A stretch of DNA of 10,155 nt, taken from UHGV virus genome UHGV-0264998; one strand, written 5' to 3'. This DNA is from a virus. A program made the position numbers. Shown piece after piece: positions 6,001 through 10,155 of this stretch (position 1 is the stretch's first letter; each line of letters begins with the position of its first letter).

Positions 6001-9000
6001 CATGTTCGGTAACAGGCATATGATTAACTCCAGAGAATCAGGGAGAGCCTTTCGACTCAGAGGTATTTAGCGATGTACTGCCAGTTGCAGTTTTCAGGGC
6101 GGTAGAAGTAAGCAAGCTCATCAGGCGCAACATCCAGCGCCAGCGATGACCACAGCAGAAAAGCGCGGGCAGGTTCCCCATCGCGCCCGGCTCGTCCAAT
6201 CATCTGAACAAGATCAGGCAAATCATCGGGGACGTATGTCACGACAACGTTACGGATATCAGGAACATCAGCACCCAGCCCGAAGGCTTTAGTAGCAATA
6301 AGAATCGCGCCCGGCGTAGAGGCAAACCACTCAGCGTTTGCGTGGCGTTCCTCGTTGCTCAGGTGCATCGTCTTCGAGTGATATGACCGCGCCCGGTCGC
6401 CCAAGAGTTTCAGGTACGCCCGCAACGTTTTAAGGTCATTGACGAGAATAAGCGTCTTCTCTTCTTTCGGCAGAGCCTCGACCAGACCAATAGCCGCTCG
6501 GAAACGTTCGCGGCACTGTCTGACTGGCGTCAACTGGATATTCTCGCGAGCAACATCAGCGCGGAATGTTACGTAATCGCCACGGCAGCCAAGCGACTCC
6601 ATTAAACTGCGCTCATTTTCGCGTAGCAGCGTAGCCGTAAACACGCAGCGTTGAGCCGAAGGAAAGGCATTCTGTAGTGTGTGCTGCATTGCGTCGTAAG
6701 CTGGGCGGAAATCCCAGTCTTTGACCGTGTGTGCCTCATCGATAATAAAACGATCAACGCCATAAGCCATCAGCGCCGCGAGAACCTGACTCGACGGAAC
6801 CAGATGTTCAGGCGAAACGACTGCAACCCGGAACGCCCCGGCAGCCAGCCCCGCCAGTTGTTGCGCATTGCGGTGCCTCGGCAGCTTGTCACCAAATGCC
6901 ACAGCGTGAACGCCAGCCTCCCGCAACTGGCGGAGAATCTGACGCTTAAGGGTATTAGTAGGAACAACGATAACAGACAGGCCAACGCCAGCGCGGGATT
7001 CATAAATCAATGGGTAAGTGAAGGCAGCGCTTTTGCCATACCCAGTAGGCAGAACGGCAAGCACATCACTGCCACGGGAAAAGATCGCATCAGCAACAGA
7101 CAATTGCCCCGGCCTCCACTCCAGCCCATCAGGTGGCAGCAGGCTAACGCGTGCGTTTCGGTCACAGCGAGCCAGCGGGCGGAACTCATACGGCGTAGTA
7201 TTCAGTGGCGGCACAGACGGCGAAGCAGCCAAGCCGTTCGGGTCACAATGATGATTTGTACTATTAAATCTATCTTCGGTAGGCTTCGACTCTCCACACC
7301 AAAATTGACGAAACTCCCCTGAGTCTCCGTAGCGTTTGAAATCTGCGTTACGCATCGCTTCCAGTTTACTCATGCCCCTGTTAATGCGGCGCATGGTCTT
7401 CTCATCGCAAATCAGGAACTCGCGGCAGGCTTTGAGAAAAGCATTCTGTCCGGTTGTTGATTCCGGCACGGCGTGCTCTCGCGGTTTCAACGCGGCATCG
7501 TCTACGCGAACATCGGGAAAATCTGGCGGCAGCGGGTCAACATAACGAGCAGGCTTTTTATTTAGCCATTGCTCAATCTCAGCGCGTCGGCAGTGAATCG
7601 CGTCACCGGGCTGGATGACTTGCCGTAACCCCTTATCAGAACGCTGTTTTTGCTTTTTAGGCTGCACACCGTGTATCGTTCTCCACTCCCGCAAGGTCAT
7701 CGCGGAGCCATCTGCATTGTAATAAAACTCTTCGGTCTTTGTGTTGTATGCCGCCTTAACGGGTTTACGCTTTACGGGGCATATCTTGGAACGCCGAATA
7801 ACAATCCCGTCAGCGATCATTTGCTGTACATCTGCATTTGCGGTATTGAGCGGGCCAGCATTGGCAGCCTGCGCAAGCAAACGGCGTAGGTTCGTTGGCA
7901 TGGTGAAATCTCCAAAAATTAAGGTGAGTTAAGAATGGGGCGCAGGATGGAAGCGCCGAGAGTGTGGCAGCCTGTCCTTCTTAGTAGATGCTTTCATTGC
8001 ATTGGCGTCGATGATCCGTCTCCCCACAGTAGACACCTTTATTTGAACGATATTTAATCAGATCCATTGCAAGCCTTGCTCTATCTGACTTTACGGGTAA
8101 TTAGGTGATAACTTTTGGTAGGTTTGGCGGAACAATGGAATGGATGCGGTTAGTAGCGGCATTGTGTGTACCGTATCCCAATATAGTCACTTTCATCGGG
8201 TGGAATCCGGCAGGATGCCAGACGGCAGAACGTGAACGTAGTAGGGCAGGTAACAGACAATAGACCGTGACGGCGTACTATAGCTGGCAGTAGTACAGCA
8301 GGCAGTAAGACCAATGACCAACGGCTAAGACCTGAAAGGAAACGAACAAGAAAGATGATTGAATGCTACAGAAATGAATGAAGATGTTATGAAGAATACC
8401 GTACCGATATCAGGATAAGATTGAATAAAGTAAGAATACCGATACTGAGTACCGTCCCACTACACCTCCCCGCCGCGTTGCCTGCCACGGCAAGCACGGT
8501 TGCGTAGAGTGGCCGAGCATCAGCAGCGGGCAAAGACCGGGAATGAGCCAAAGGCGATGGAGCGGGCTGGAGCACAGCGAGAAGCGCAGCCAGTGGAGAG
8601 CGTGAAGCGATAACACTGATTAGGAGATGGGGATGTAGGGGAAGAACCCTTTTTTGTACATGTATTTAAAATGCAACTTTAAAGAGAGCGAAGCGCTCTT
8701 ACACTGCTTGGGATGAGAGAGTGAAGGGAGAGAAACCTTTATTGTACATGTACTAAAGATACATCTTTAAAACAGCTCAACCAAGTGATGCCACTCCGTC
8801 TCCTGTCTGGCTTTGAGACTGGACAACACAGCCTTTGATCCCTTCCCCTGCCCCATCCCTCGAATTGTTCAGTGATAAATCACATTCACAATCTGATCTC
8901 GATGTTCATCGTCTGGCACGGCTAAAGCCCCGCCATCTCTTCACATCGAGAGCCGCGAGTAAAACGAAAACACATTACAAATCATAGCATTACAACATGA

Positions 9001-10155
9001 CGCATAACATAACACTCTGAAATCAATACAAAAGCTGTAGGCCACCCATCACCCATAGCCCAGTAACGGCCAGTGCTGGCACCTAATCAGGCTGTAGGTT
9101 GTCACTCTGTAACGCTGGCGGTCAGCTCGCGTTTGATACGGTAGAACGTTGCCCGGCTTATCCCGGCAGCTTTCATGATGTGCTCTGGTTTATTCCCAAC
9201 GGTAAGCATAGCGCGGACAGTTTCACGGGCGCTCTCATCCTTAGACTTTCCGTTATATTTCCCCTCTGCTTTGGCACGCTCGATGCCCTGCGCTTGGCGT
9301 GCTCTGCGTGTCTCATAGTCCACTCGTGCCATCGTAGCGAGGATATCGATCAGCATTGCGTTAACGGCTCTTAGAATGCCCTCTGTAAGCTCTGACGAGG
9401 TATCGCTCAGTAGCTGCCATGAGGTTGGCAGGTCAACGGCAACGATCACCAGCCCCTTATCCTGAATCCTCTGTTTCAGTGTCGCCCATTCCTTTTGCGT
9501 CAATCGGCTTAGCCTGTCGATGCTCTCGACAAGCAAGACCTCTCCGGCCTCTGCATCATCCAACAGGCGCATCAGTTCAGGGCGAGCCAGCCTTGCACCG
9601 CTGGCATTCTCGATGTACTCCGCCCGTACAGGCCAGCCCCGATCACTGGCGAACTCTCGCAGCAAGCCCAGCGCCCGGTCTGCGTGTTGCTCTGCTGTAC
9701 TGGCGCGGCAATAGATAAGCGCATTGTGTGCCATGCTTCCCCTCCTAAGTCTCAATGAAATACCACAGCAAGATCTATAAGAGATCACATCAACAATGTG
9801 TAGTCAATAGAGTTTTATAGATAGTCAAATGAGACAGCGTATCTATGTCTTTATCAGGTATACCCGGATGAGACAGAGACAGCCAGCGGCAGACTGGCAC
9901 CGAGTCACAGCAAAACCCCGGCGCACCCAGCGAACGCAGCGCAAAGCGCACACAGGAGATCAGCACGGCACCGCCACGATCTCGAAATCACAAAGGCGTT
10001 GAATCAAACATTGCAACCGCAGCAGTAACCAGCCAGCATTTCGCGCCTGCAACGGTTGCCTCGGATGAGCAAAATCTTAGGGTTTTCTCAGCGACCCCTG
10101 ACGCGCGGGCACGCACATGTGCACGGGGGCGCGGGCGAGCTATAGAGTTGAGGGA

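Follow-up and report, generated by a model that had tools for sequence, protein, structure and literature searches.

In the 10,155-nucleotide (nt) stretch of the virus genome UHGV-0264998 analyzed here (the whole stretch is called the window hereafter), all credible genes are encoded on the minus strand, and a non-coding gap of about 1.2 kb lies between a serine recombinase gene and a helicase gene. Both flanks of this gap are on the minus strand as well, which is the sense strand of the gap. The window is part of a tRNA-Leu island (~14.7 kb) found in Enterobacteriaceae. The gap is real, conserved, composite, and non-coding, and is most likely a control region: it harbors three copies of a promoter-like motif that is also present in podophages of the genus Bonnellvirus, a tract resembling the left end of their genomes, and a structured RNA-like element. 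Coordinates of the features are collected in Table 1; an “ig” numbering is also used for positions in the gap, and L001–L049 are the locus labels of relatives and phages.

A Conserved and Mosaic Non-Coding Gap

In the preliminary description of this DNA, a region of 1.17 kb was regarded as free of open reading frames (ORFs) on the plus strand, and the same applies to the whole gap: no plus-strand ORF of at least 60 amino acids (aa) is found in 7902–9101, where the longest ones are 52, 50, and 40 aa. The two minus-strand ORFs that it took to be spurious, which are the longest of the gap on that strand (8387–8575, 62 aa; 8410–8616, 68 aa), are indeed interrupted by frameshifts or stops in homologues, and their products gave neither a Pfam match nor a meaningful PHROG match. 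The purine bias reported for the plus strand at about 8300–8640 is also present (64% versus 49% in the rest of the window), although the plus strand is the antisense strand here. Short direct repeats are found as described, namely CTGCC five times within 8209–8305, CGGTATTCTT twice, and a 20-nt motif three times. The two long imperfect repeats with palindromes correspond to a tandem pair of 88-nt units, 72% identical, each of which carries TACATGTA; the duplication is, however, limited to some relatives, since two copies exist in the window and L022 while most relatives have a single copy. The hairpins are real, two of them show covariation, and the gap is conserved in relatives, in agreement with the proposal that its structure exceeds the needs of a simple promoter.

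The gap is conserved in ~60 of 5426 complete Escherichia coli genomes, including E2348/69, where it is chromosomal, and together with its flanks it is also found in Enterobacter, Kosakonia, Kluyvera, and Trabulsiella. An alignment of the relatives is not uniform but mosaic, with blocks swapped, duplicated, or missing. For example, ~270 nt beside the recombinase gene is kept even where helicase identity is only 67–71%, and several blocks of the gap are better conserved than the flanking helicase gene, while the helicase-proximal 290 nt occurs in two unrelated versions. Along the sense strand, four main parts follow one another in the window: the 134-nt structured element, the duplicated 88-nt unit, an A-poor, C-rich tract of which the final 117 nt resembles the Bonnellvirus left end, and the three copies of the 20-nt motif.

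In some relatives, the corresponding gap contains inserted real genes: a Phage_pRha protein and an HNH endonuclease are encoded in L008 (4938–5579 and 6238–6729), and an ORF of 100 aa in L012 (6675–6977). In the 240-kb E. coli plasmid pEc-JB2-4 (L046 5675–6227), a helicase pseudogene with a promoter-motif leader is located among insertion sequence elements, and this match was set aside as a decayed island remnant.

A Putative Satellite and Its Likely Helper Phages

In E. coli, the island lies beside tRNA-Leu with a tyrosine integrase gene at its far end. An assembly contig of 14,774 nt (L006) closes on the 25-nt 3′ end of the tRNA (1–25 = 14750–14774, CGGTTCGAGTCCGGCCTTCGGCACC), and these identical ends suggest an excised circle or a collapsed attL/attR. 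A major head protein of 346 aa is encoded in the window at 1719–2759 on the minus strand (phrog_267, E 2e-70). The closest phage relatives of this capsid protein, at 56% identity, are those of Bonnellvirus (Lidtsur, glasur, and LF82-23), ~42-kb podophages of the T7 supergroup. The island also codes for an HNH endonuclease and an endonuclease VII; a full virion gene set is absent from it, and neither a portal nor a terminase was recognized. An integrase, a tRNA attachment site, a size of ~15 kb, and a partial phage-related virion gene set, by which phage satellites are recognized, are all found, and by this gene content the island looks like a phage satellite. The satellite family is apparently undescribed, and its likely helpers are Bonnellvirus podophages; a search of the literature on satellites of Autographiviridae or of this phage group found nothing relevant.

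Promoter-Like Motifs in the Putative Satellite and in Bonnellvirus

A motif of ~20 nt with the consensus AATGAARGTGTCTACTAAGG is found in three copies ahead of the helicase gene, all on the helicase strand. Two matrices were prepared for this motif: a phage-only matrix from ten phage sites of LF82-23 and Lidtsur, and a satellite-only matrix from satellite copies. The phage-only matrix gives three matches in the window, 79–297 nt before the helicase ATG, whereas only 0.03 matches of at least 14 bits are expected per window, and no further match in the window reaches 12 bits. Conversely, with the satellite-only matrix, LF82-23 has five sites that reach 17.9 bits or more (0.03 expected), and Lidtsur has sites at the five syntenic positions, where four sites have at least 15 bits (0.23 expected). 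Across 26 non-redundant loci, 56 motif matches are within 700 nt upstream of the helicase gene versus five in the other 276 kb.

The phage sites are syntenic in LF82-23 and Lidtsur, and each phage has its own variant. One precedes the replication genes, another comes right behind the RNA polymerase gene, and a third is at the gene that follows; the remaining two are within an internal virion protein gene and in the genome-end region. Four of the five run in the same direction as the genes, and two have a hairpin on one side and a ribosome-binding site (RBS) on the other. By eye, the motif resembles the consensus promoters of T7, T3, SP6, and K11 in a CTA core and a purine-rich start, but only roughly half of the positions agree. 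No sigma-70 consensus promoter is found in the gap of the window or of L004, and no published promoters or termini for Bonnellvirus were found in the literature. Judging from these matches and their places, the motifs are probable promoters for the single-subunit RNA polymerase of the helper.

In a sister family, 8–12 copies of ATTTGAwGTTnnATACTAAGGAGAG are arrayed at 33–40 nt spacing ahead of an HNH-helicase operon (L007 4087–4440; L008 5423–5825). Small ORFs starting at the motif (with ATG, reading MKVST) were also considered and rejected: no Shine-Dalgarno sequence precedes the copies, the downstream frames differ among relatives, and the sister motif starts with TTG.

The main rival explanation is a replication origin of the iteron type, in which a satellite initiator, for instance the helicase N-terminal domain (260 aa), would bind the 20-nt motifs and unwinding would occur at the T-rich segment. 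Indeed, the motif, which fits the 17–22-bp size of iteron sites, is directly repeated beside the helicase gene in every relative, the arrays of the L007/L008 family are iteron-like in copy number and spacing, a segment of 35% GC is nearby, and the N-terminal 260 aa of the helicase has no match. An iteron should be private to the satellite, however, and this motif occurs at five dispersed, syntenic, and mostly gene-co-oriented sites in each of two helper-type phage genomes. Its spacing in the window (45 and 154 nt) is irregular, which also counts against iterons, and the helicase core belongs to the RecQ family of superfamily 2 (E 1e-38 to RecQ), not to a known type of origin-binding initiator. 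An origin for the adjacent helicase, one of the roles first proposed for the gap, thus has no direct support and is unlikely in our estimate.

Homology to the Left End of the Likely Helper Genome

Besides the motifs, part of the gap is homologous to the left genome end of the likely helper, as judged from nucleotide alignments. In L001, L002, L004, and L006, 200–230 nt of the gap matches a stretch of non-coding DNA in 15 Bonnellvirus genomes at 82–94% identity, far above the identity of the capsid genes (56% at the aa level). In the window, the CTGCC-rich tract (8197–8313) corresponds to the proximal part of this stretch and matches Kc261 with 71% identity over 117 nt in a pairwise search (E 7e-11); a sensitive search of the whole phage collection with the gap gave one 45-nt match of 87%, and megablast of the gap against the phages gave none.

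The position of this stretch in the phage genome can be specified. A Bonnellvirus-like contig of 40,981 nt in IMG/VR has an exact direct terminal repeat of 259 nt (L048 1–259, L049 9688–9946), which begins at TCGACCCGAAGG, right after a conserved CCTCCC. Because this repeat was located, the shared stretch can be placed between the left terminal repeat and four early sigma-70 promoters. The sense-strand composition, unusually poor in A, is common to the phage end and the satellite gap. With the class II pause signal ATCTGTT taken for comparison, TATCTGTCTCTTTT or TATCTATCTTTTTT is present in the phages shortly downstream of the repeat (9 nt in the one contig measured), while the window has only GTCTGTTAC at 8250–8258.

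Along the non-coding end of Bonnellvirus (LF82-23 = L021 4328–5843; L048 1–300), a ~400-nt tract of 2–10% A, a T7 class-II-pause-like TATCTGTCTCTTTT shortly after the terminal-repeat region, a leftward promoter-like motif, two AATGATTACAGTAACTTAT-like copies, and four tandem TTGACA..TGCTGTAAT early promoters follow one another. A break in the record of the phage glasur was considered as a physical end and set aside; it may be an assembly break at an inverted 27-nt repeat and gives no usable evidence. Likewise, CCCATCCC-TCGA at the G-tract of the satellite was rejected as a mimic of the phage left end, since TCGA is not conserved among the satellites and the match is inverted.

A Structured RNA-Like Element

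Covariation among homologues, which had been named as the sign that would distinguish an RNA from protein-binding sites, is found in an element of 134 nt. In total, 19 distinct versions of the element were gathered from genomes and metagenomes, and 13 of them were aligned for a consensus. In the consensus fold (RNAalifold), P1 is a long helix that encloses an inner hairpin, and P2 is a hairpin located after it. In the alignment, 97.9% of the cells are paired, and both sides have changed in nine pairs, versus 2.3 ± 1.1 in shuffles (0/500) and at most two in slid controls. The outer stem of P1 exists in nine versions among the loci compared, of which seven are perfectly complementary and the other two have one U·G pair each. 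The stem is rewritten and yet complementary in L010 (GAGGATGAAT/ATTCATCCTC, a perfect complement), L007, and L008. The latter two belong to the sister family, whose helicase is 43–46% identical overall; there, the best matches of the covariance model R1, weak ones (E ~0.05), are at the same place, directly after the resolvase gene, with new stems (AGTGAGTA/TACTCACT and AGTGCATA/TATGCACT) and unchanged loop bases, GAAGA and GAnGAUGA. Invariant G·U pairs favor the helicase-sense strand, for which the fold energy is also lower (−41.9 versus −28.5 kcal/mol for the other strand).

According to the aligned sequences, compensatory changes preserve the helices of the element. As a candidate for a new RNA family, the element is well supported; it may form the 3′ untranslated portion of the recombinase transcript. 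A cmscan search of the whole window against Rfam 15 with E up to 1 gave no match, including the C4/CI antisense RNA, GOLLD, ROOL, and DUF3800 motifs, and a search of the phage genomes with model R1 found no copy of the element. Antisense to the element, an ORF of 50 aa with a TTG start (8835–8987 on the plus strand) is open in most close relatives and has no family match; its openness probably just reflects the high conservation of the DNA.

Could the element be a part of something larger? The preliminary description raised the possibility of a long structured non-coding RNA (ncRNA), and what remains of it is the element with covariation, limited to ~134 nt and not extending over the whole 1.17 kb. 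A single structured ncRNA across most of the 1.2 kb would agree with the covariation in this part, with the G·U pairs that favor the sense strand, with the lack of any conserved ORF in the gap, and with the G-tract on the 3′ side of the element, which is complementary to a C-rich stretch at 8623–8649, 180 nt downstream (predicted duplex −33 kcal/mol). The conservation is mosaic, however, as described above; the A-poor block has no convincing consensus fold among relatives, the helicase-proximal 290 nt comes in two unrelated versions, and Rfam has no match, all of which make such an RNA quite improbable.

Another proposed role, a cluster of res/att-type sites on which the neighboring serine recombinase would act, has even less in its favor. 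A small serine recombinase gene always immediately precedes the structured element, in the divergent family too, P2 is also a 27-bp imperfect palindrome, and CCTACAGC is repeated at the module boundary. Nevertheless, the recombinase is replaced by types of only 27–35% identity in L002, L004, and L005, while the neighboring DNA is still 83–88% identical. Furthermore, the arms of P2 are asymmetric (4 nt versus 3 nt) with a loop that varies by one or two bases in length, the arms of P1 are 37 nt apart, and pairs seen only as G·U point to a single-stranded structure; a recombination site is thus very improbable here. Least credible of all is a decayed gene or functionless spacer, to which the real genes in the equivalent gap of some relatives (pRha and HNH in L008, the 100-aa ORF in L012) and a Logan gene call of a 170-aa ORF in the gap might point, because the ORF fragments lack Pfam or meaningful PHROG matches, reading frames are not kept, several blocks outdo the flanking helicase gene in conservation, and covariation is present.

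A Candidate Helper-Responsive Switch

We are slightly inclined to the view that a ~14.7-kb integrated satellite has its cis-acting control region in the gap, which would consist of a helper-responsive switch and a structured RNA candidate, with Bonnellvirus phages as the likely helpers. Without infection, the operon from helicase to capsid would be silent, given the lack of a sigma-70 consensus promoter in the gap. Read-through transcripts from the recombinase gene would meet the folded RNA and then a long untranslated tract, rich in C and poor in G, which would suit Rho-dependent termination. Upon infection, the single-subunit RNA polymerase of the helper would start at the three motifs and transcribe the operon; therefore, induction would be wired directly to the helper, without a repressor. 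The helper-like tract might supply cis signals for helper-driven replication or packaging, which is speculative.

Several observations weigh against this scheme. The match of the window to the phage end is weak (71%) and lacks the best-conserved phage-like part that is seen in relatives, and the 259-nt terminal repeat is not found in the satellite gaps, where significant matches to phage end regions fall only after the repeat. No phage in the collection matches the helicase-proximal version of the window, the L012 gap, or the L008 array, and thus an L012-type gap is left without a phage counterpart. As to the motif, its likeness to the T7 and SP6 consensus is only loose, the genome-end site of the phages is leftward, one phage site overlaps an annotated start codon, and a promoter role is itself deduced from sequence in Bonnellvirus as well. 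The long-range pairing between the G-tract and the C-rich stretch was set aside, for it is strong in many loci and absent in the L005 type. Moreover, the status of the island as a satellite is read from gene content only.

A broader interpretation, which we put forward tentatively and hold to be somewhat less probable than the switch, is that these islands are previously undescribed satellites parasitizing virulent T7-like coliphages, induced by copied promoters of the helper polymerase and equipped with a new class of structured RNA. Possibly they also soak up the helper polymerase, as the arrays of 8–12 copies in the sister family suggest. Known satellites sense their helpers via phage proteins that inactivate a repressor or trigger excision, and copying of helper promoters, if true, would amount to another, very direct logic of induction. 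Virulent T7-like coliphages, which have wide use in phage therapy and biotechnology, would then also be added to the known helpers of satellites. The island is present in ~1% of the complete E. coli genomes and could influence how infection by these phages turns out. For Bonnellvirus, the analysis also yielded a terminal repeat of 259 nt and a candidate consensus of its promoters. The helper-promoter-like motifs, the homology to the helper genome end, and the satellite context are not visible to a reader without tools, as was the case in the preliminary description.

Comparison with Known Systems

As in the promoters of the T7 group, a short conserved motif with an AT-rich upstream part and a purine-rich start recurs in the phage genome, co-oriented with the genes, ahead of gene clusters. 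In T7, tandem promoters beside an AT-rich segment also act as origins (phi1.1A/phi1.1B, phiOL, and phiOR). phiOL and the short-repeat region of T7 lie between the terminal repeat and the early promoters, which we take to be the position of the tract common to the phage end and the gap. Unlike T7-group promoters, the copies here are on a chromosomal island and match T7 and SP6 only loosely, and the copy in the end region of the phages is leftward.

SaPIbov5, a phage-inducible chromosomal island, carries the cos site of its helper. The present case is like this mimicry in that a non-coding stretch of ~200–230 nt in relatives is far closer to the likely helper (82–94% in nucleotides) than any common gene is, the capsid being at 56% in aa. 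On the other hand, the common stretch is internal to the left end and coincides neither with the terminal repeat nor with any known cleavage site, the match in the window is only 71%, and the likely helper here is a virulent T7-like phage with terminal repeats.

Regarding the RNA, the immunity leader of the satellite P4 contains the CI RNA and its targets seqA and seqC, upstream of the operon for the alpha primase-helicase. Similarly, a long untranslated leader precedes a helicase operon here, and a small putative folded RNA is followed by downstream stretches complementary to it (the G-tract versus a C-rich stretch). In contrast to P4, there is no Rfam C4/CI match, and the complementarity is not kept in all subfamilies.

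PLE of Vibrio cholerae, whose helper is ICP1, is an integrated island of ~15–18 kb that depends on a virulent helper and is induced only by infection, as the present island would be. PLE is induced via a phage protein and not, as far as known, by helper polymerase promoters, its helper is a myovirus, and the two have no sequence in common.

Other Features of the Gap and the Island

The recombinase-proximal spacer is the boundary where differing recombinase modules join the conserved backbone. Within the region of the 88-nt tandem units, a terminator-like hairpin is found on the antisense strand at 8637–8651. The A-poor block includes the strongest windows of C over G (rut-like) in the window, and most of it (ig 512–644, window ~8458–8590) is 94.7% identical in L010 although the flanks of L010 differ.

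Table 1. Features of the gap, of its flanking genes, and of the island attachment site (positions in the window unless a locus label is given)
Feature	Position	Strand	Remarks
Serine recombinase gene, resolvase-type	9102–9788	−	228 aa; stop at 9102
Whole non-coding gap	7902–9101	−	From serine recombinase stop (9102) to helicase start (7901)
Recombinase-proximal spacer	9034–9098	−	Direct repeat CCTACAGC at 9091–9098 and 9034–9041
Structured RNA-like element	8829–8962	−	134 nt; covariance model R1 score 162.6 bits
P1 outer stem	8943–8951 with 8897–8905	−	
GA-rich internal loops	8935–8942 and 8906–8914	−	
Inner GC hairpin	8915–8934	−	
P2 hairpin	8865–8891	−	TTGT..GTGAT-TT-ATCAC..ACAA; two compensatory pairs in L010
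G-tract	8840–8859	−	GGGATGGGGCAGGGGAAGGG; 3′ side of element; sole canonical G-quadruplex motif in the 10-kb window
Two tandem 88-nt units	8596–8683 and 8684–8771	−	72% identical; each with TTTAAAG and palindrome TACATGTA (8745–8752, 8657–8664)
A-poor, C-rich conserved block	8447–8592	−	5–13% A on sense strand
T-rich segment	8320–8446	−	35% GC; CGGTATTCTT and ATCGGTA, two copies each
CTGCC-rich tract	8197–8313	−	Resembles Bonnellvirus left genome end, between 259-nt terminal repeat and early promoters
Promoter-like motif A	8179–8198	−	CGATGAAAGTGACTATATTG; 18.5 bits, phage-only matrix
Promoter-like motif B	8025–8044	−	AAATAAAGGTGTCTACTGTG; 20.9 bits, phage-only matrix
Promoter-like motif C	7980–7999	−	CAATGAAAGCATCTACTAAG; 19.3 bits, phage-only matrix; predicted transcript start ~80 nt before helicase ATG
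Helicase operon leader	7902–7979	−	Includes RBS; small ORF in different frames among relatives
Helicase RBS	7909–7914	−	TGGAGA
Helicase gene, DEAD/Helicase_C	6057–7901	−	614 aa; ATG at 7901
tRNA-Leu site of E. coli copies	L001 19418–19502		

Elsewhere in the window, a 9-nt tandem repeat, TATTGCCAT, is found at 3957–3994 inside an ORF of 228 aa (4.2 copies, 64% matches). In the island, the segment between the tRNA and the recombinase gene harbors variable cargo (L001 15816–19000; L006 576–2431; L010 3171–4541), which is a DUF3800 protein, a DNA methylase with an Eco29kI-type restriction enzyme, or a DUF2971 protein, and looks like a hotspot of defense genes.

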